Below, in pieces: positions 7,463 to 23,018 of a DNA stretch of 57,990 nt. Source of the stretch: Verrucomicrobiia bacterium (GTDB lineage: Bacteria > Verrucomicrobiota > Verrucomicrobiia > Limisphaerales > UBA11358). The DNA is taken from NCBI GenBank assembly GCA_036511615.1, contig DATCBW010000220.1, forward strand, positions 1-57,990. Direction: 5' to 3'. The notes beneath the pieces were generated by a model, which saw only the letters and a program-made list of their open reading frames with translations, did not search any database and was not told where the DNA came from. A program made the position numbers and the translations under genes. How positions within the stretch are numbered: position 1 is the first letter of the stretch; each line of letters starts with the position of its first letter.

Positions 7463-7547
7463 GATCTGGTCAATTAGAAGTTGCCATCGTGGCGGAGTGA
7501 TTTATACTCGGCAAGTGAGATTAAGCTGGAATTTTTTGTGGCTGGCA

Positions 7548-7724: not shown

Positions 7725-9149
7725 ATGCGTTTCCCATTCGCGCTGACGAAGAAGATTGCCAGTCACATCATCAAGCACAAACTGCGCAAGACGCCGAAAT
7801 TTGCGATGGTCTTGCAGCTCGAACCGCTGCACACCTGCAACCTCACCTGCACCGGCTGCGGCCGCATCCGCGAATATTCCACGAGCCTCAAGGACATGGT
7901 GCCGCTGGAGCAATGTCTGCAAGCAGCGGTGGAATGTGATGCGCCGATGGTTTCCATTTGCGGCGGCGAACCGCTCATTTACCCGAAAATCGAAGAGCTG
8001 ATCAACGGGTTGCTCGAACAAGGCCGCGTGCTTTACATCTGCACGAACGGAATGTTCATGCGCAAAAAAATGCGCGATTACCTCGCGGCAGTTTATTCGC
8101 CAGCGCTGGAGCCGAAACTGAAAAAATTGCTGGACGGAAAATTGATTTCTGAAAAGGAAGCCGAAGTCATCCGTAAATCCGACGACGCGGCGAAGAAAAA
8201 AACCGTCATCCGTCCGACGAAATGGATGTATTGGAATGTCCACGTTGACGGTTTGGAATTCACGCACGATTTGATCGTGGAGCGCGAAGGCGTCTTCAAG
8301 GAATGCGTCGAGGCGATCAAGATGGCGAAAATCATCGGCTACCAAGTCGCGACCAACACGACGGTTTATCGCGAGACCGACGTGCAGGAAATCGAGGACA
8401 TGTTCAAGTATTTGAGTTCGCTCGAAGTGGACGGCCACACGATTTCGCCCGGCTACGATTACGACGCCGCGAAAAAAGACATGGTCAAACGCCTCGGCAA
8501 AGACCCGAAGCAATTTTTCCTCACGCGCGATATGACGCGCCAAAAATTTGCGAAGATTCTTGATTGGGGCAAAATGTTCACAATTTTTGGCACGCCTGGT
8601 TATTTGGAGTTTCTTGCCGGCAAACGTGAATTGCCGTGCAGTGCGTGGGCGATTCCCACTTACAATGTTCGCGGTTGGAAAGCACCATGTTATGTGATGA
8701 CCGACGGCCATTATCCGACTTACGCGGAAATGTCGGCCAAAGTGGATTGGAATAAATATGGCGTTGATGAAAATGGCTGCGGTCGCGATCCGCGCTGTGA
8801 AAGCTGCATGATGCATTCCGGCTTTGAACCCTCTGCGGCGCTGAATTCCGGGCTTGCGGACAGTTGGAAAAATTTCAAACACAACTTCGGCCCAAAACCG
8901 AAGCCGTATCCGGCATCGCCCGAACTGGCGAAGCGCGCTTACAACGGTGTGACCATCGGCAAAGGCCATCTGGCCGAGGCGAAGGCCGCAATCAATTCGC
9001 CTGCCGCCGGCGCGCGCGGCGCGTTCGCGAATGAAGTTCATCACGAAGCACACGTCGGCAGTTCCTGTGGCACGACCGATACATCTGAACGCGATGAGTT
9101 GCTGGCGAAGATTAAGGATGTGAAGAAAACTGACGCGCGCACGGAGTAA
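7725..9149 (+). CDS. hpnH: Radical-SAM adenosylhopane synthase-like protein
   Basis: CxxxCxxC (LHTCNLTCTGCGRI), DECGAP-like VECDAPMVSICGGEPL, Cys-rich SPASM-like end (CGRDPRCESCMMHSG). Matches my memory of HpnH, but has an extra internal segment and a long C-terminal tail. Confidence 0.8.
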   Translation: MRFPFALTKKIASHIIKHKLRKTPKFAMVLQLEPLHTCNLTCTGCGRIREYSTSLKDMVPLEQCLQAAVECDAPMVSICGGEPLIYPKIEELINGLLEQGRVLYICTNGMFMRKKMRDYLAAVYSPALEPKLKKLLDGKLISEKEAEVIRKSDDAAKKKTVIRPTKWMYWNVHVDGLEFTHDLIVEREGVFKECVEAIKMAKIIGYQVATNTTVYRETDVQEIEDMFKYLSSLEVDGHTISPGYDYDAAKKDMVKRLGKDPKQFFLTRDMTRQKFAKILDWGKMFTIFGTPGYLEFLAGKRELPCSAWAIPTYNVRGWKAPCYVMTDGHYPTYAEMSAKVDWNKYGVDENGCGRDPRCESCMMHSGFEPSAALNSGLADSWKNFKHNFGPKPKPYPASPELAKRAYNGVTIGKGHLAEAKAAINSPAAGARGAFANEVHHEAHVGSSCGTTDTSERDELLAKIKDVKKTDARTE

Positions 9150-9161
9150 GCCATCATCATT

Positions 9162-9584
9162 ATGTCCGTGGATTATCAACAGCTAGAAAAGGTAAAGCCA
9201 CTTTTTGATATTATTTCGTCAATAAGTGCTTTGGTTTTAGCGATTCTGACTGTTCGTGCAATTTATCTTACTAGAGAGGCCTTGAGTGAATCCGCGCGAC
9301 CAGCTATTCGAATTATTCCATTGCTTTCGTCAGACCAAAAACGTCTTAGGCTCAAATTATGTAATGATTCAGAGCATCATGCAAACCGACTAGAAATCAA
9401 AACCAAACCACAAAGCATTTTAGCTCATTTGCCCGCTTTAGGACCTAAAGAAGAACATACTGTCGATTTGGGAGAACTTTCAAAATATTCGTCAGAATCC
9501 CCTCTGGTATTGAAAATAAAATTTCGGAACACAAGGGGCGATAAATTTGTTGCAATTTATGAATCGTCCCTTCCAAACTTATAG
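9162..9584 (+). CDS. Hypothetical single-pass membrane protein (low-GC cassette gene 1)
   Basis: N-terminal TM helix LFDIISSISALVLAILTVRAIYL followed by a beta-rich region. ATG lies 13 nt after the hpnH stop. Sampled line at 32% G+C. Confidence 0.55.
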   Translation: MSVDYQQLEKVKPLFDIISSISALVLAILTVRAIYLTREALSESARPAIRIIPLLSSDQKRLRLKLCNDSEHHANRLEIKTKPQSILAHLPALGPKEEHTVDLGELSKYSSESPLVLKIKFRNTRGDKFVAIYESSLPNL

Positions 9585-9586
9585 TA

Positions 9587-11365
9587 ATGAGACTTTGCGA
9601 AGAATCCGAATTTAAGAACCAGCGCGTTGCACCAAACAGATGTTGGAACGAGTTGACGGGAGATTTTCTTACAGAAGCGATGGGCGACATTTACCACAAC
9701 CGCGAAAAACTACTTGCCTGTTATGCTGCGGCTCGTCAGCTTCAAGAAGACGAAGACGACTATCCAAAACAGATAATTCAACATGTATTGAGTTCTCAAA
9801 GACAATCAGCTGAACGAAAATTATTTATTATTTATGGACCACCAGGCATCGGAAAAACTACATATTTAGCAAATGTTTTTCGCCAGCGAGCGGAAGCGGA
9901 GGCAGCAAATCATGCAATTGTTCCGATTTTTTTCGATCTTCGTAATACGAGTGATTTTGATAAGCTGCCGGAGAGATTTGCTGAACACGTTTTTGAGGAG
10001 TTTATCGACGTGCATCCTTTATTTAAGGAAGATGCAGAAGAAAACACACGTTTGCGAGCTTATGCCGAAGTTTTTAAGGATCGGTTAAAGCAACAGGTCG
10101 TTGGTTTTGAGTGGAAACGCTTTTCGAGCTTTGTGAAACAGACAGGAAACCGAGATAAGCTCCAACGTGTAATTGAAGAACGATATCTTGCTAATCGTCC
10201 ATTCTCCGCACAACTGCTTTCTCGCTTTATCGCATCAAAGAATTCACTAATACCCGTATTTATTATCGACAATTTTGACCATCAGGAAGGTAATCTTGGA
10301 AATCACGCTCGCGTGTTCGCGTTTGTAAAACAAATCCTTTTTGACTACGGATTTCCTGTTTTCATGCCCATGCGGAATTATACATATGCCGATTCCTACG
10401 ATAGATATGGTTTTATTGAAGCTGATCGTGTGCGAACAAAGGCGCTATCTGTTCCCAAACTCGAAAAGGTTTTCCAACGTCGGAAGGAATATATTTTGGC
10501 CAACATCGGCAATAACATTGAAGTTAAAATGGCTGGAAAGCGTTTTGAAATTAGTCCTGATAGTATGCGCTCCACAGTTGAAGAGACTCTGGCTGGCGTT
10601 TTCAACACGCCAGAAAATATGCACTTTTTGCAGGGTATTTCTGGAGACAATTGTCGCGTGTTTCTGGACATGGTGGCGAATGTGATTTCATCTGGTCATA
10701 TTACTGTAAACCAGAACACAACCAAAGTGCCATTTAAGTCCTTTTTGCGGGCATCTATGTGTGCTAATCATCTTGTCTTTCGTCCGCAAGATCGTCGTGT
10801 TCCTGTCATCAATGTTTTTGATAACGAAGGGCCTGTTGGAAGTAAAAACACGTTGGTGCGAATACGCATCCTTCAATTATTGCGAGATATTTCTAGTTCG
10901 ATGACTGTGGCAGATATTTGCAATGAACTTTCCTTGCTTCAATACTCATCTGAAATTGTGAAGCTCGCTCTTCGCCGAATGTTGGAGCAGGGGCTTTTGA
11001 AAGAAACGCCTTACTACCAAGGGGCAAATAAAATGACCGCTCACACAGAACTCGAACTTGATCCAATAGGAATCTATTATTTAGAGGAATTGGCGGTCAA
11101 CCATGTATATTTTGAGATAATGACTGGTTCAATAAATTTACCGATAGTTATGAAGCGACACCTTGTAAATTTAGCACCCACAAATTCCGAAACAAAAGTT
11201 CAGCATGATAAGCGATTTAGTTCGTTACGGGCAGTCGTAGATTGGGTTCGCGAATTTGAGATTCAGGATGAAAAACAGTTTCCACAGCTTGATTATTCAA
11301 AAAGATTTTATCGCATTTCAGATTCCATAGAATCGCGTATTTCTGATACATATATCGAAGGTTAA
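9587..11365 (+). CDS. Orc1/Cdc6-like AAA+ ATPase with winged-helix-like C-region (low-GC cassette gene 2)
   Basis: Walker A GPPGIGKTT, Walker B-like VFIIDNFDH, lid motif GDNCRVFLDMV, wHTH-like TVADICNELSLLQYSSEIVKLALRRMLEQGLLKE. Start may instead be an internal Met (MGDIYHN). Confidence 0.7.
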   Translation: MRLCEESEFKNQRVAPNRCWNELTGDFLTEAMGDIYHNREKLLACYAAARQLQEDEDDYPKQIIQHVLSSQRQSAERKLFIIYGPPGIGKTTYLANVFRQRAEAEAANHAIVPIFFDLRNTSDFDKLPERFAEHVFEEFIDVHPLFKEDAEENTRLRAYAEVFKDRLKQQVVGFEWKRFSSFVKQTGNRDKLQRVIEERYLANRPFSAQLLSRFIASKNSLIPVFIIDNFDHQEGNLGNHARVFAFVKQILFDYGFPVFMPMRNYTYADSYDRYGFIEADRVRTKALSVPKLEKVFQRRKEYILANIGNNIEVKMAGKRFEISPDSMRSTVEETLAGVFNTPENMHFLQGISGDNCRVFLDMVANVISSGHITVNQNTTKVPFKSFLRASMCANHLVFRPQDRRVPVINVFDNEGPVGSKNTLVRIRILQLLRDISSSMTVADICNELSLLQYSSEIVKLALRRMLEQGLLKETPYYQGANKMTAHTELELDPIGIYYLEELAVNHVYFEIMTGSINLPIVMKRHLVNLAPTNSETKVQHDKRFSSLRAVVDWVREFEIQDEKQFPQLDYSKRFYRISDSIESRISDTYIEG

Positions 11366-11371
11366 AAAAAT

Positions 11372-12826
11372 ATGAGCAAAACACTTTATCTTTCACCTCC
11401 AAGTTTCGACGGTTTTGACGGCGGCGCGGGCGCGCGTTATCAGGCGCGGCGCGAAGTCACCAGCTATTGGTATCCGACATGGCTCGCGCAACCCGCCGCG
11501 CTCACGCCGAATTCCAAATTGCTCGACTGTCCGCCGCACGACATTGACTTGAAAAAGTGCCTCGCCATCGCGAAGGATTTCAATCACGTCATCATCAACA
11601 CCTCCACGCCGTCGCTGAAAAACGATTGCAAGGTCGCCGAGGCCATCAAGGCGCAGAAGCCGGACACGAAGATCGGTTTTGTCGGCGCGCACACGATGGT
11701 GTTGCCGACGGAAACTTTGAAGGCGTCGCCGGCGATTGATTGGGTTGGCCGCAAGGAATTTGATTTCACCTGCAAAGAAGTCGCCGAAGACCGCGAGCTT
11801 TCAACCATTGCCGGTTTGTCTTACAAAGACAAGGACGGAAAAATTAAACATAATTCCGAACGCGAAATGATCCAGGACATGGACACACTGCCGTGGGTGG
11901 CGGATGTCTATAAGCGCGATTTGCAGATTGAAAAATATTTCATCGGCTACCTGCTGCATCCTTACATTTCAATGTATACCGGACGCGGCTGTCCGGCGCA
12001 GTGCAGCTTCTGCCTCTGGCCGCAGACCATCGGCGGGCACAAATACCGCGTCCGTTCGCCGCAGAACGTCGCGGACGAGATGGCCTACATGAAGAAAATT
12101 TTTCCACAGGTGCGCGAATTTTTCTTTGACGACGACACGTTCACGGCAAATCTCCCGCGCGCCCGCGAAATCGCGAAGAAGCTTGGTCCGCTTGGCGTTC
12201 ACTGGAGCTGCAACAGCCGCGCGAACCTTGATTACGACACGATAAAATCTTTCAAGGACCACGGCCTGCGGCTGTTCCTGGTCGGCTACGAAAGCGGCAA
12301 CGACGACATTCTCACCCGCATTAAAAAAGGCGTGACAATGGACGAGATGCGCCGTTTCACCAAGGCCTGCCACCAGGCGGACGTGGTGATTCATGGCACA
12401 TTTATTCTCGGCCTGCCGGTCGAGACCAAGGAGACGATTGAGCGGACGATCAATTTTGCGAAGGAGCTGGACGTGTTCTCGCTGCAAGTTTCGCTCGCCG
12501 CGCCGTATCCGGGCACGGAGCTTTACGAGCAGGCCAAGCTCAACGGCTGGTTCGTGAAAAAGGACAAGACTGACCTCGTTGAGTCTGACGGCCTTCAGCA
12601 AAGCACGCTCGAATATCCCGGCGCGTCGAAGGAGGAAATTTTCGAGGCCGTGGACCGTTTCTACCGCACCTATTACCTGCGGCCAAAACCAATTCTGCGC
12701 ATCATCAAGACGATGCTCGAAGACAAGGACATTCTCGTTCGCCGCTGCCGGGAAGGCTATGAATTTTTCAAGAGCCTTAACCAGCGGAAACATGACTTGG
12801 CGGCGGCAAAGGCGGCGGCAGCGTAA
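11372..12826 (+). CDS. hpnJ: B12-binding radical-SAM protein, hopanoid biosynthesis HpnJ-like
   Basis: N-terminus LSPPSFDGFDGGAGARYQARREV..WYPTWLAQPAA and cluster GRGCPAQCSFC match my memory of the HpnJ family. Confidence 0.8.
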   Translation: MSKTLYLSPPSFDGFDGGAGARYQARREVTSYWYPTWLAQPAALTPNSKLLDCPPHDIDLKKCLAIAKDFNHVIINTSTPSLKNDCKVAEAIKAQKPDTKIGFVGAHTMVLPTETLKASPAIDWVGRKEFDFTCKEVAEDRELSTIAGLSYKDKDGKIKHNSEREMIQDMDTLPWVADVYKRDLQIEKYFIGYLLHPYISMYTGRGCPAQCSFCLWPQTIGGHKYRVRSPQNVADEMAYMKKIFPQVREFFFDDDTFTANLPRAREIAKKLGPLGVHWSCNSRANLDYDTIKSFKDHGLRLFLVGYESGNDDILTRIKKGVTMDEMRRFTKACHQADVVIHGTFILGLPVETKETIERTINFAKELDVFSLQVSLAAPYPGTELYEQAKLNGWFVKKDKTDLVESDGLQQSTLEYPGASKEEIFEAVDRFYRTYYLRPKPILRIIKTMLEDKDILVRRCREGYEFFKSLNQRKHDLAAAKAAAA

Positions 12827-20734: not shown

Positions 20735-21664
20735 TCAGATATAAATTTCCGCAAATCTTTTCAGTTGAGGTTTTATATCTGCTGGCACAAGTTGGAAAAG
20801 TTTCTCATTTTGCATAATCGGTCGAATAACATTAACCGCGAGTGAAATTTCATGCTTAATTTCTTTTAAGTCCTTTTCTGCATCTTTCAATTCAGCTTCG
20901 CGGAGTTCAACATCTTTAGAAAGCATCTCCATTTCTGATGCGCTAATTTTGGGACGAGAAACAGAAGCTCGTTTTTGTTTTTTTCTTTTTAACTTCATCG
21001 CAACTCTTTCCGGCTTGCAATAGAAGTCTGGATTTTGATCTGGGTGATATTTCTTGCGAATGTCTTGATGAAGTTTTCCGCCTGATAGTTTTTTGAAATC
21101 AGCTTTCTTGTCACGCCAGATGCGCTTCTGTCCTGTGTCCGTCATGCCATCGAACACGCGAGCAGAATGTTCAGTTATTTGACCGCTATCAACCGCCTTC
21201 TGGACTTCAGGAATAAGTTTGCCCACTACCAACCAATTATGGATGGTTGTCGCGTCAACACCGAGATATTCGCCAACTTCCTTATTGTTCATTTTGAAGT
21301 TTGCCATTAGCGTTTTTATCAAAGAAGCGCGTTGACTCGGGAATAAATCTTGCCGGTGTTCATCCAAAATGAAACGGATGCGATCACGATATTCTTCCGG
21401 TGGAACTCCTTTGGGCAAATCATCAATGACACACGGCACTTGGAGATGTTTCAAATATTTTGCAACCTCTAATCGTCGGAAGCCATCAATAAGCACAAAC
21501 TTTCCGTCATTTAATTTTGAAACAACCAAAGGTTGTTGAATTCCAGTCCGTTCAATCGAGTGTCGCAATTTGTCATCTTCGACAACATCGCCTGAACGCC
21601 GGTATTTATCCGGCACTTGTATTTGAGTGATTTTGATCGATTCTGCTTGGCTAACATTTTTCAT
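20735..21664 (-). CDS. ParB/Srx-fold + HTH protein (ParB-like 2)
   Basis: N-domain QPLVVSKLNDGKFVLIDGFRRLEVAKYL, then HTH MNNKEVGEYLGVDATTIHNWL, then a K/E-rich coiled tail. About 40% G+C. Confidence 0.75.
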   Translation of the reverse strand: MKNVSQAESIKITQIQVPDKYRRSGDVVEDDKLRHSIERTGIQQPLVVSKLNDGKFVLIDGFRRLEVAKYLKHLQVPCVIDDLPKGVPPEEYRDRIRFILDEHRQDLFPSQRASLIKTLMANFKMNNKEVGEYLGVDATTIHNWLVVGKLIPEVQKAVDSGQITEHSARVFDGMTDTGQKRIWRDKKADFKKLSGGKLHQDIRKKYHPDQNPDFYCKPERVAMKLKRKKQKRASVSRPKISASEMEMLSKDVELREAELKDAEKDLKEIKHEISLAVNVIRPIMQNEKLFQLVPADIKPQLKRFAEIYI

Positions 21665-22545
21665 CTTGCCTCCATTGTTTGAATTACTTGTGCGAATTCA
21701 GAGAAATCAACGCCTTCTTTTTTCAAAGCTAGTTTCATTTCAGGCATTACGAGCAATTGCTTAAGATTGCTCGGTCCCAACGCCCAATGAAGCCGTCTTA
21801 ATTTCAACAAAGTGCGCGCTTCGCTCAATGCTTTGTCGAGATCACGAAGTGAAGATCGAAGCGTATTCTTTGAAAGATTTCCTGTTTGCCTCAAATCCTT
21901 TGTCTTTTTTACGAGAGCTCTAATTTGGTCAGAACCTAAATTTTCCTCTTTCAATACTTCCACGACAATTTCTTGGTCTTTCGCGTCGAGAGATGCCAAT
22001 GCTTCGGCATCATTCATGGAAAGTTTCTGAATTTCTCCTTCTTTCATTAACTTTGAAGAGGCATGCCCTAAAGTCCGCAGATATTTATAAACGTGTCCCG
22101 TAGTGACGAAATATTTTTTCTTGATCTCTTCAACTCCGATACCGCGTTCGATGTCCTGTTTAACTAATTGAGCACGCTCAAACCAACTCAATCGTTTTCT
22201 CATCACGTTTTCTGCCAAAAACCGGCCAACAATTTCTTCCTCTGGAACATCAATTATCATTGCAGGGATTTTAGGCAGTTCAAGTTCACGAAATGCCTGT
22301 AGACGTCCCTGCCCGCATATTAATTCGTAATTGTAAAGCCCTCCATCATTTCGCCGGCGATCCGAATGAGACCACTTTGTAATGTCTCGGACCTGAATCG
22401 GCTGCTTCAAGCCGACAGCGCTGATGCTTTCTTTCAAGCGCGCGTATGCACCTTGGGCGCGACTGCGCCTGACAAAATATTTTATCTCATCAATCTTAAT
22501 TTCAACAACTTCAACTTTAGTTGATTCATTAGTGTTATGGTTCAT
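21661..22545 (-). CDS. ParB/Srx-fold + HTH protein (ParB-like 1)
   Basis: QPIQVRD..YELICGQGRLQAFRELELPKIPAMIID, ParB-like box RFLAENVMRKRLSWFERAQL, HTH-like VEEIKKKYFVTTGHVYKYLR. ATGA overlap with the next gene. Confidence 0.75.
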   Translation of the reverse strand: MNHNTNESTKVEVVEIKIDEIKYFVRRSRAQGAYARLKESISAVGLKQPIQVRDITKWSHSDRRRNDGGLYNYELICGQGRLQAFRELELPKIPAMIIDVPEEEIVGRFLAENVMRKRLSWFERAQLVKQDIERGIGVEEIKKKYFVTTGHVYKYLRTLGHASSKLMKEGEIQKLSMNDAEALASLDAKDQEIVVEVLKEENLGSDQIRALVKKTKDLRQTGNLSKNTLRSSLRDLDKALSEARTLLKLRRLHWALGPSNLKQLLVMPEMKLALKKEGVDFSEFAQVIQTMEAR

Positions 22546-22565
22546 ATTTGTCCTTTCGCTAAAAA

Positions 22566-23018
22566 CTATCCGTTTTCACGAAGCAAGTCAAGCGCCCTTT
22601 CAAACAACTGACTGACCCGCTGCTTGCTTACACCGTAACTTTTTGCAATTTGAGAAAATGACTCGCGTTCACCATCAAAACCCAAATGTCTGATTACAAC
22701 ATTTCTTTCCCGATTGGGAAGAATCGTTAAATCCTTTGCAAGTTTCCGAGACAATTCTTGATTGCATATGTCAGAAAATGGCGTTTGTTCATTTGTAAAA
22801 GCATCTTCGTTTTCGCGCACAACAAAATCACCGTTGGCTTTATACACAAATAGACTTTCAATAATCGCGCGCATAAATTTCCCATTGATCATGCGTTCGC
22901 AAAAACAATTACCTGCTTGAGACGAGGCCAAGTTTTCCGGTAAGTTCTGCATAATCTTTTTCGGGTCTTGTCGGCAAAGCCATAAGCGACCTTGGTTGCC
23001 AGTTCTTCCGATTGGCAC
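22566..23018 (-). CDS. Sigma-70 region-4-like HTH protein (C-terminal half of a possibly split sigma factor)
   Basis: LPNRERNVVIRHLGFDGERESFSQIAKSYGVSKQRVSQLFERALDLLR is a region 4.2-type HTH. The N-terminal about 40 aa of the ORF overlap 22889-23185 in another frame. Confidence 0.55.
   Translation of the reverse strand: MPIGRTGNQGRLWLCRQDPKKIMQNLPENLASSQAGNCFCERMINGKFMRAIIESLFVYKANGDFVVRENEDAFTNEQTPFSDICNQELSRKLAKDLTILPNRERNVVIRHLGFDGERESFSQIAKSYGVSKQRVSQLFERALDLLRENG

Follow-up and report, generated by a model that had tools for sequence, protein, structure and literature searches.

What is a low-G+C pair of genes doing inside an operon for hopanoid lipids? The question is raised by a 57,990-nt contig from a Verrucomicrobiia bacterium of the order Limisphaerales (GenBank assembly GCA_036511615.1, contig DATCBW010000220.1, forward strand; this whole stretch of DNA is called the window below), in which two open reading frames (ORFs), ORF1 and ORF2, lie between the hopanoid genes hpnH and hpnJ. 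An earlier reading of the letters alone (the sequence-only reading) had described them as a cassette of a small transmembrane (TM) protein and an AAA+ ATPase with a winged helix, reminiscent of defence or abortive-infection pairs. We find that the block is a foreign, precise insertion and not a part of the hopanoid pathway, and that ORF1 and ORF2 form a real, conserved and very rare module. That this module serves conflict or defence in some general sense is, on balance, probable. In the form that we favour, it would be a promoter-less two-gene conflict module, acquired horizontally and most probably of an anti-phage or anti-plasmid, abortive-infection type, that replaced a spacer of ~14 nt between hpnH and hpnJ.

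Insertion of the block into the hopanoid operon

The genes and junctions of the locus are the following.

7725–9149, + strand: hpnH (adenosyl-hopene transferase), native upstream gene; NCBIfam TIGR03470, 359.5 bits, cut-off 225
9150–9161, + strand: left junction, from the hpnH stop to the ORF1 ATG; 12-nt spacer GCCATCATCATT, read from the sequence
9162–9584, + strand: ORF1, 140 aa, small membrane-anchored protein; proposed effector or membrane anchor
9587–11365, + strand: ORF2, 592 aa, ORC/Cdc6–STAND-class AAA+ NTPase; proposed sensor and switch
11366–11371, + strand: right junction, from the ORF2 stop to the hpnJ ATG; 6-nt spacer AAAAAT, read from the sequence
11372–12826, + strand: hpnJ (B12-binding radical SAM protein), native downstream gene; NCBIfam TIGR03471, 745 bits, cut-off 578

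On rereading the sequence, the ORF coordinates, their lengths and the spacers of 12, 2 and 6 nt proved to be exactly those claimed at the outset, the 2 nt between ORF1 and ORF2 being TA. Both flanking genes score above their curated NCBIfam cut-offs, and the GenBank annotation describes ORF1 and ORF2 as hypothetical proteins only (VIK53_12110 and VIK53_12115; ORF2 is HEY5042736.1). The low G+C of the block, at first noticed in a few sampled lines, holds for the cassette as a whole, with 0.404 against 0.556 ± 0.041 in equal-sized windows elsewhere (z = −3.7; 55% in the window overall), with 38–43% in 300-nt windows across the block against 50–66% in its flanks and, at third codon positions, with 0.29 in ORF1 and 0.36 in ORF2 against 0.66 in hpnH and 0.72 in hpnJ.

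Related loci show what the site looks like without the block. Our comparison set comprised 80 hpnJ loci from a scan in which each GTDB species was represented by one genome; of these loci ~43, nearly all verrucomicrobial, have hpnH directly upstream; relatives of ORF1 or ORF2 were found at none of the 80. In the closest relatives (HpnJ 90–95% identical; L007–L010 and L038), hpnH and hpnJ are separated by a gap of 14–38 nt, as in gagTAA-attttgaaattcca-ATG, a 14-nt spacer unlike the left junction in the window. The view that a cassette is wedged between the two genes is thus backed by empty sites in related genomes, and from their 14–38 nt it follows that the cassette replaced a short hpnH–hpnJ spacer almost exactly. 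Two features of the flanking genes are native, since relatives have them in common: the AT-rich 5' end of hpnJ, whose first ~30 nt are conserved in the empty-site relatives, and the long tail at the C-terminus of HpnH. HpnH has 474 aa against the 318 positions of the TIGR03470 profile, which it matches in two stretches (residues 157–373 in the best); its C-terminal extension is of ~100 aa, and verrucomicrobial relatives align up to residue 474.

A function linked to hopanoids, for example as an aid to side-chain processing or transport, would suit the position of the pair in a hopanoid cluster, its co-orientation with the neighbouring genes and its tight spacing, which are the sole points in favour of such a role. 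Against them stand the absence of the pair from all 80 hpnJ loci, including the ~43 with hpnH directly upstream, its foreign composition, its presence elsewhere without hpn neighbours and the unrelated cargo that occupies the same junction in relatives (both described below). Conservation beside hpnH and hpnJ across hopanoid producers, which the sequence-only reading had named as the sign of a pathway-linked function, is therefore not what the 80 loci display, and with this distribution of the pair a role in the hopanoid pathway is as good as excluded.

As had been noted at first sight, the block holds no recombinase gene and no flanking direct repeats: neither direct nor inverted repeats around the cassette rose above background, and the gene content of the block includes no recombinase. 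Likewise, no target-site duplication was found at the cassette ends by comparison with the empty sites, no Rfam family matched in the block, and the 6 nt downstream of ORF2 are too few for an integron attC site. The sole good sigma-70-like promoter match of the region (10/12 positions, to a consensus that may not apply to Verrucomicrobia) is at 7481–7508, upstream of hpnH, and our scan found no promoter-like or terminator-like site on the + strand inside the block. Because that only good match sits upstream of hpnH, the simplest expectation is that transcription from the hpnH promoter would read through into the cassette. Its co-transcription with the two flanking genes, already suspected from the near absence of spacers, is accordingly plausible, given the common orientation, the spacers of 2–12 nt and the lack of such internal + strand sites in the scan.

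The pair is not the only insert known to us at this junction. The following inserts were found in relatives.

L017:5109–5949, operon strand: NTP_transf_2 and HEPN pair
L043:5079–5979, operon strand: NTP_transf_2 and HEPN pair
L013:5456–5988, operon strand: ParE-like toxin pair
L081:3109–5956, operon strand: AAA_15/AAA_21 ATPase and three further ORFs
L011:3220–5151 and L016:5104–5982, operon strand: GT9 glycosyltransferase and/or Kdo hydroxylase
L022 (5486–6001) and L024: inserts of ~0.5 kb without assigned content

Since such varied inserts, of ~450–3000 nt, are present at 8 of the ~43 related hpnH–hpnJ junctions, the spacer between the two genes takes up cargo repeatedly, and the junction appears to be a recurrent operon-internal cargo hotspot. 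All inserts lie on the operon strand wherever ORFs could be called, and about half of the cargo is of toxin–antitoxin (TA) or defence type. The insert in L022 (5486–6001) contains no convincing ORF; similar PRVARDE.PW peptide strings occur in ORFs on both of its strands, and these like strings suggest an inverted-repeat element.

Elsewhere in the window, a second low-G+C island at 20735–23018 (− strand) has ~41% G+C, as low as the cassette, and encodes a 150-aa protein with a sigma-70 region-4 helix-turn-helix (HTH) alongside two proteins, of 309 and 294 aa, that have a ParB_N domain; it is probably another foreign insert. Within the hpnJ set, HpnJ proteins 76–95% identical to that of the window were also met on contigs with distant taxonomic labels, namely Methylomirabilota (L007, L040), Bifidobacteriaceae (L028, L050), Akkermansia muciniphila (L029, L033) and Binatia (L064), which are probably mis-binned or mislabelled contigs of metagenome-assembled genomes.

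The pair in other genomes and its neighbours

An indexed search among 5.8 billion protein clusters returned five homologues of ORF2, at 33–38% identity, and the same five came back when the search was repeated with a 23-sequence alignment, while a metagenome scan with alignment A2 revealed three further loci. Wherever upstream sequence was available, that is, in 8/8 independent loci (the window, L001, L002, L003/L004, L005, L006, L087 and L089), an ORF1-type protein is encoded directly upstream of the ORF2-clade NTPase (E from 1e-15 to 3e-52 with a hidden Markov model, HMM, of the ORF1 family), and the same HMM matched nowhere else in the 1.07 Mb of DNA that was fetched. The concern, voiced with the sequence-only reading, that the two genes might never co-occur elsewhere is thereby dispelled. 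Moreover, their spacing of −14 to +15 nt across the loci suggests translational coupling. Beyond these loci, a 218-aa fragment from SRR5665213 (P0012) has the first residues of ORF2 at its start and joins the ORF2 cluster at an identity of at least 90%; because the fragment comes from an independent read-derived catalogue, the cassette or the organism has been sampled more than once.

The contigs that harbour the pair have 55% G+C in the window, 44% in a contig that encodes Agr/LytTR, 47% in a 2.8-Mb contig and 35% in a groundwater contig. The cassette itself has 29–31% G+C in other genomes and, in L001 and L002 too, falls below the G+C of the host. A low-G+C cassette in hosts that differ so strongly indicates horizontal transfer.

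Genes of defence or mobile type lie next to several copies.

L003: AbiU (PADLOC, E 4e-27)
L088: complete Type III restriction–modification (RM) system (Mod, E 5e-208; Res, E 1.5e-144)
L001: HerA-like ATPase, integrase fragment and insertion sequence (IS) elements
L002: large RM-type methyltransferase, of the type IIG kind
L005: HigB toxin and an HTH gene

In this small sample, five of the ~6 informative contexts have AbiU, a Type III RM system, a HerA-like ATPase, an RM methyltransferase or HigB as neighbours. Some copies are decayed, with an IS4-type transposase splitting the NTPase right after Walker A in one (L089:688–2067, − strand; L088 ends in the same IS-interrupted copy) and a frameshift in the NTPase of another (L006:295–2087). 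Such decay is usual for accessory genes that carry a cost. Defence-gene neighbours and decayed copies are habits of accessory conflict genes, and the original suspicion of a defence or abortive-infection function, to which genomic context points, is strengthened by these defence-island neighbours.

The same observations can be read as those of a selfish addiction module, in which ORF1 would be a small membrane toxin restrained by the ATPase, or with the two roles exchanged. Such a module would persist because losing it does harm, and would be hosted in an essential-lipid operon for stable expression. A TA module of this sort would accord with the tight coupling of the genes (−14 to +15 nt), with the classical TA pairs (HEPN/MNT and ParE-like) at the same junction in relatives and HigB beside the pair in L005, and with the existence of IS-disrupted and frameshifted copies. 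An AAA+ protein of 592 aa with a wHTH (winged helix-turn-helix) and an extra domain is, however, far bigger than typical antitoxins, and the nuclease-fused relatives of ORF2 (see below) are standalone genes without an obvious antidote in plasmid contexts. Addiction thus appears unlikely to us as the whole explanation, although it overlaps with the defence assignment, TA and defence roles not being mutually exclusive.

Architecture of the two proteins and the nuclease-fused relatives of ORF2

Along ORF2, the features given below were assigned from an AlphaFold2 (AF2) model, built from a five-sequence alignment and judged by the predicted local distance difference test (pLDDT), and from residue conservation in the 23-sequence family alignment A3.

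9587–9736, + strand: N-terminal segment, residues 1–50; proposed docking site for ORF1
9836–9862, + strand: Walker A GPPGIGKTT, residues 84–92; G89, K90 and T92 invariant in 23 sequences
9944–10246, + strand: all-helical insertion of ~100 aa, from strand 2 to Walker B; AF2 helices 124–218, pLDDT 70–89
10256–10282, + strand: Walker B VFIIDNFDH (D-N-x-D), residues 224–232; D228, N229 and D231 invariant in 23 sequences
10355–10456, + strand: most conserved block of the family, PVFMPMRNYT..DSYDRYGF.EADR.RTK; R263 invariant, R283 at least 90% conserved (alignment A3)
10634–10675, + strand: lid with GD..R sensor-2 motif GISGDNCRVFLDMV, residues 350–363; R357 invariant in 23 sequences
10838–11059, + strand: wHTH, residues 418–491; AF2 model of three helices and a beta-hairpin, pLDDT 81–91
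11063–11362, + strand: C-terminal helical domain, ~100 aa; AF2 helices 493–591, pLDDT 69–88

With a Walker A, a Walker B and a helical lid that carries a sensor-2 arginine and is followed by a winged helix, ORF2 has the hallmarks of an AAA+/P-loop NTPase, and the AF2 model (mean pLDDT 67.7) comprises a P-loop core, the helical insert, the lid, the winged helix and the helical C-terminal domain. The three motifs picked out by eye, GPPGIGKTT, VFIIDNFDH and that of the lid, are all present and their key residues are invariant in the 23-sequence alignment. In Walker B, N229 stands where a second acidic residue is usual. R263 and N264 are candidates for sensor 1 and R283 for the arginine finger, in a segment (262–292) that AF2 modelled at pLDDT <50. 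Weak HTH_5 and Dimerisation2-like matches fall at residues 423–457, within the wHTH, where R427, L429 and Q430 are conserved. The ~100 aa after the wHTH are helices, and no match to a repeat-family sensor (TPR, WD40 or LRR) was found in ORF2; this C-terminal domain is homologous across the superfamily, with profile matches reaching position ~595 in many relatives, and may act in sensing or oligomerisation.

To which branch of the AAA+ proteins does ORF2 belong? Foldseek searches of PDB placed ORC4 and archaeal Orc1/Cdc6 first (E 2e-4, probability 0.97–0.98), then Apaf-1, CED-4 and RdrA, with probabilities of 0.77–0.98 over ORC4, Orc1/Cdc6, Apaf-1 and CED-4. The 'Orc1/Cdc6-like' label of the sequence-only reading finds support in this ranking, but the TM-scores are poor, at only 0.14–0.24, so that no more than local domain order was matched, and most of the sub-threshold Pfam matches are of the STAND type. 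No Pfam or NCBIfam model was matched above its cut-off: the best in Pfam was AAA_22 (E 1.3e-5, 26.0 bits, gathering cut-off 27), the STAND models NACHT (PF05729), AAA_16 (PF13191) and NB-ARC (PF00931) gave 23.7, 23.7 and 16.1 bits against cut-offs of 26.7, 32.6 and 23.5, NPHP3_N and nSTAND3 were further sub-threshold matches, and the Orc1/Cdc6 model TIGR02928 reached 11.6 bits against 181.3, over the P-loop region only. The GD..R lid with R357 has the sensor-2 form typical of ORC/Cdc6 proteins, whereas the D-N-F-D of Walker B resembles the D-G-x-D-E of NACHT proteins and R263, after strand 4, is STAND-like. Because the lid is thus Cdc6-like, Walker B and R263 are STAND-like and no curated threshold is passed, we use ORC/Cdc6–STAND-class AAA+ NTPase, rather than the name of either family alone, as a defensible label.

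These matches could also be taken to mean that ORF2 works in transposition or target selection, as an ATPase like TniB, TnsC or IstB, or initiates replication in the manner of Orc1/Cdc6, and that the cassette is a remnant of a mobile element or integrated replicon. AAA_22, which includes TniB-like proteins, falls just short of its cut-off (26 against 27 bits), VchTnsC appeared at E 0.1 in a PDB sequence search with the A2 profile of ORF2 that otherwise gave only noise, ORC/Cdc6 proteins head the Foldseek list and IS elements lie beside the pair in L001. Yet every score for a known ATPase of TniB/IstB type, or of transposition or replication, an identity that the sequence-only reading had left as a possible outcome, is below its curated cut-off (11.6 bits against 181 for TIGR02928); within the window, the pair sits in a chromosomal biosynthetic operon and is accompanied by no transposase, integrase, replicon gene or origin-like repeat; what is conserved beside ORF2 is a small TM protein and not a transposase; and the IS elements of L001 and L089 have no relation to the pair, one of them disrupting the NTPase. 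We therefore consider an origin of this kind very improbable.

ORF1 is predicted to have a short N-terminus and a single TM helix, which R32 and P47 follow, and to end in a beta-rich domain of ~95 aa on the cytoplasmic side.

9198–9266, + strand: TM helix PLFDIISSISALVLAILTVRAIY; from hydropathy, the best 19-residue window beginning at residue 13
9297–9581, + strand: beta-rich C-terminal domain, ~7 strands; from AF2 secondary structure, with pLDDT <50 and a fold that is not reliable

Hydropathy and the AF2 secondary structure agree with the one N-terminal TM helix and beta-rich domain seen in it originally. The AF2 model, here from the single sequence, has a helix at residues 5–44 with block-mean pLDDT of up to 94, and a cluster of K/R residues on the C-terminal flank of the TM helix predicts an N-out, C-in topology; hydropathy and flank-charge counts agree in five intact homologues, and in the L001 homologue the TM helix comes into view only once the ORF is extended upstream to its true start. 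The small proteins upstream of the other NTPases are 16–28% identical to ORF1 (alignments A1 and A5), with R32, P47, N68, S70, K80, K82, N123 and P138 invariant and with an N-x-S motif in the beta domain and a C-terminal K-[YF]-x-N as family motifs (alignment A5). The indexed homologue search with ORF1 returned only ORF1 itself, Pfam, NCBIfam and PADLOC hold no relative of it, and a PDB sequence search with the A5 profile gave only noise; by these searches the ORF1 family is an orphan. The statement that the pair cannot be matched to a named system is likewise borne out by PADLOC, Pfam and NCBIfam.

What ORF1 might do is suggested by more distant relatives of its partner. An exhaustive profile search of 1.84 billion representatives gave 897 matches at E <= 1e-3, of which 398 also fall within E <= 1e-10 and 29 within E <= 1e-30. 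Beyond the close clade, these include proteins of ~600–640 aa with an N-terminal R..P..W...GEI..LL.CY pattern and proteins of 780–880 aa, which make up 77 of the best 150 profile matches and in which the region homologous to ORF2 begins near residue 290. The domain fused in front of that region gave sub-threshold HSDR_N matches, and its 60-sequence consensus has an intact PD-(D/E)xK signature (nEA.TR..lID ... DY ... livEAK). The FL.eCY motif, which precedes the P-loop in ORF2, comes after the PD-(D/E)xK domain in relatives of ~810 aa. The nuclease-fused relatives are standalone genes carried by plasmids from Klebsiella, Shewanella and other genera, with IS and RM genes alongside, and are also met on prophage-like contigs, beside an endolysin; no other type of relative came back from the viral and plasmid searches. 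In the fetched DNA, the ORF1-family HMM found no ORF1-type neighbour for any of them.

In ORF2, the position of the nuclease is taken by a short peptide of strong conservation that opens with an invariant M1, R2 and L3. Residues 1 to ~40 (MRL..R..P..W...GDIY) are specific to the clade with an ORF1 partner, while the L..CY...R motif is common to the nuclease-fused relatives; in alignment A2, the invariant residues of this N-terminus also include R13, P16, W20, G33, D34, I35, Y36, L42, C45, Y46 and R50. Because the peptide replaces the nuclease and a TM partner was found only with that clade, we propose for ORF1 the role of effector, or at the least of output partner, docked by the N-terminus of ORF2.

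Two of the nuclease-fused relatives, of ~850 aa and both on prophage-like contigs, have a conserved ORF of ~165 aa directly upstream (L093:3817–4317 and L095:3715–4212), with the string YKKGPYSP or YKAGPYSP, which may be a partner or regulator; its identification as a Panacea/SocA-type antitoxin was dropped, as it has no Pfam match. An Amidase_2 endolysin lies near the fused relative in L095.

Proposed mechanism and comparison with known systems

In the mechanism that we favour, ORF2 would be a cytoplasmic NTPase whose wHTH and C-terminal helical domain recognise a cue from the invader, either nucleic acid or protein, upon which it would bind nucleotide and oligomerise. Its N-terminal ~40 residues would engage the cytoplasmic beta domain of ORF1, made in coupled stoichiometry, and the clustered single TM helices of ORF1 would then damage the membrane, or ORF1 would tether the complex there. 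This specific membrane-effector route to abortive infection is considerably less secure than a conflict or defence role in general, and we put it forward as a doubtful, though concrete, possibility.

A non-lethal defence by DNA capture would use the same parts differently: the wHTH of ORF2 would bind incoming DNA and ORF1 would only tether it to the inner membrane, a host nuclease or exclusion would act, and the membrane would stay undamaged. The single TM helix and cytoplasmic domain of ORF1 suit a tether, the fused relatives carry a DNA nuclease, and AAA+ proteins of the ORC/Cdc6 clade with a wHTH are DNA-binding scaffolds in BREX and related systems (PMC12839542). Set against this are a module without a nuclease or any other enzyme and a DNA binding by ORF2 that is itself only supposed, and DNA capture, like addiction, seems to us an unlikely account.

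Several observations weigh against an abortive-infection module of the proposed kind. The context evidence comes from only ~6 informative loci, and tblastn found no match to the pair in 50,697 phage records, 72,556 plasmid records or IMG/VR. The junction inserts in L011 and L016, with their GT9 glycosyltransferase and/or Kdo hydroxylase, are not conflict-related. PADLOC-DB v2.0.0 gave no significant match, with none for ORF1 and MkoA as the best for ORF2 (E 2.6e-4, 17 bits, P-loop only). AF2 modelled ORF2 at medium quality (pLDDT 67.7; Foldseek TM-scores 0.14–0.24), and since Walker B (D-N-F-D) is without the usual catalytic Glu, ORF2 may bind rather than hydrolyse nucleotide. Finally, with the ORF1 beta domain modelled at pLDDT <50, effector, anchor, sensor and antitoxin are all candidate roles for ORF1.

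If the pair is a defence system, ORF2 would stand for a new sensor family in bacterial immunity, between the ORC/Cdc6 and STAND ATPases, two branches from which eukaryotic replication licensing and NLR/apoptosome immunity arose. Nature would then also allow two outputs built on the same chassis to be compared, the nuclease fused to some relatives and the membrane protein encoded separately here. The pair itself is minimal, a 2.2-kb stretch of just two genes, and is easily synthesised and tested. Moreover, a foreign cassette without promoter or terminator matches in the scan, in a ~14-nt spacer of a lipid operon where several relatives have other TA or ATPase cassettes, suggests that defence genes can be housed inside housekeeping operons as well as in classical islands, at sites that island-based discovery methods would miss. 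In its broadest form, our proposal joins two claims: that the ORF2 superfamily consists of new ORC/Cdc6–STAND-like immune ATPases with an interchangeable N-terminal effector (a fused PD-(D/E)xK domain, or a separate single-pass protein bound through a ~40-residue docking peptide), and that the Limisphaerales-like hpnH–hpnJ junction is a hotspot for promoter-less, co-oriented defence or TA cassettes expressed by read-through. Both holding together is a tentative prospect, somewhat on the improbable side.

Among known systems, the ORC/Cdc6 clade (BrxC, BrxD, DUF499) shares with ORF2 the AAA+ core, the GD..R helical bundle, the wHTH and an insert after strand 2, and ORC4 and archaeal Orc1/Cdc6 are its top Foldseek matches (probability up to 0.98). 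ATPases of this clade with a wHTH are established parts of BREX-type defence, and a helical insert after strand 2 has been described for them, to which the ~100-aa helical insert of ORF2 would be comparable by position (PMC12839542). ORF2 differs from the clade in its Walker B, which is D-N-x-D and not D-E, in the 11.6 bits that it scores with TIGR02928 and in having no BrxC match in PADLOC. Compared with BrxC itself, it has 592 aa and not ~1200 aa, and in place of a PglZ or methyltransferase partner it is paired with a 140-aa TM protein.

The STAND antiviral NTPases (Avs/AVAST, bNACHT) are similarly built of a P-loop NTPase, a helical lid, a winged helix and an extra C-terminal domain, and resemble the ORF2 superfamily in carrying the effector at the N-terminus (the fused PD-(D/E)xK domain in ORF2 relatives) and, as far as the few informative contexts of the pair go, in their defence-island settings. 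The sub-threshold NACHT, AAA_16, NB-ARC, nSTAND3 and NPHP3_N matches of ORF2, and Apaf-1 and CED-4 in its Foldseek list, point in the same direction. In contrast to STAND NTPases, ORF2 passes the threshold of no STAND model in Pfam or PADLOC and has no TPR, WD40 or LRR array, whereas it does have the ~100-aa insert before Walker B and the GD..R lid, with a separate small TM protein as the proposed effector.

With TniB and TnsC, ORF2 shares AAA_22 as its best Pfam match and a weak VchTnsC match in the PDB sequence search; it is set apart from TniB, TnsC and IstB by an AAA_22 score below cut-off, by the lack of a transposase or TniQ conserved beside the pair in the eight loci and by contexts that are not transposons.

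For ORF1, the nearest parallel that we can offer is with the Cap15-type TM effectors of CBASS, which combine TM helices with a small beta domain and disrupt the membrane when activated. Like them, ORF1 is predicted to have an N-terminal TM segment and a compact all-beta cytoplasmic domain, and its gene adjoins that of a putative sensing or signalling enzyme. It differs in having one TM helix, no detectable similarity in PADLOC, Pfam or PDB and a fold that is not reliably modelled, and the ORF1–ORF2 module differs from CBASS in being without a cyclase or other second-messenger enzyme. An AAA+ or STAND-like NTPase that works with a membrane or nuclease effector is a known general kind, but none of Pfam, NCBIfam and PADLOC v2 describes the ORF1 and ORF2 families, the way in which they are paired or the fused superfamily, and literature searches found no account of them.

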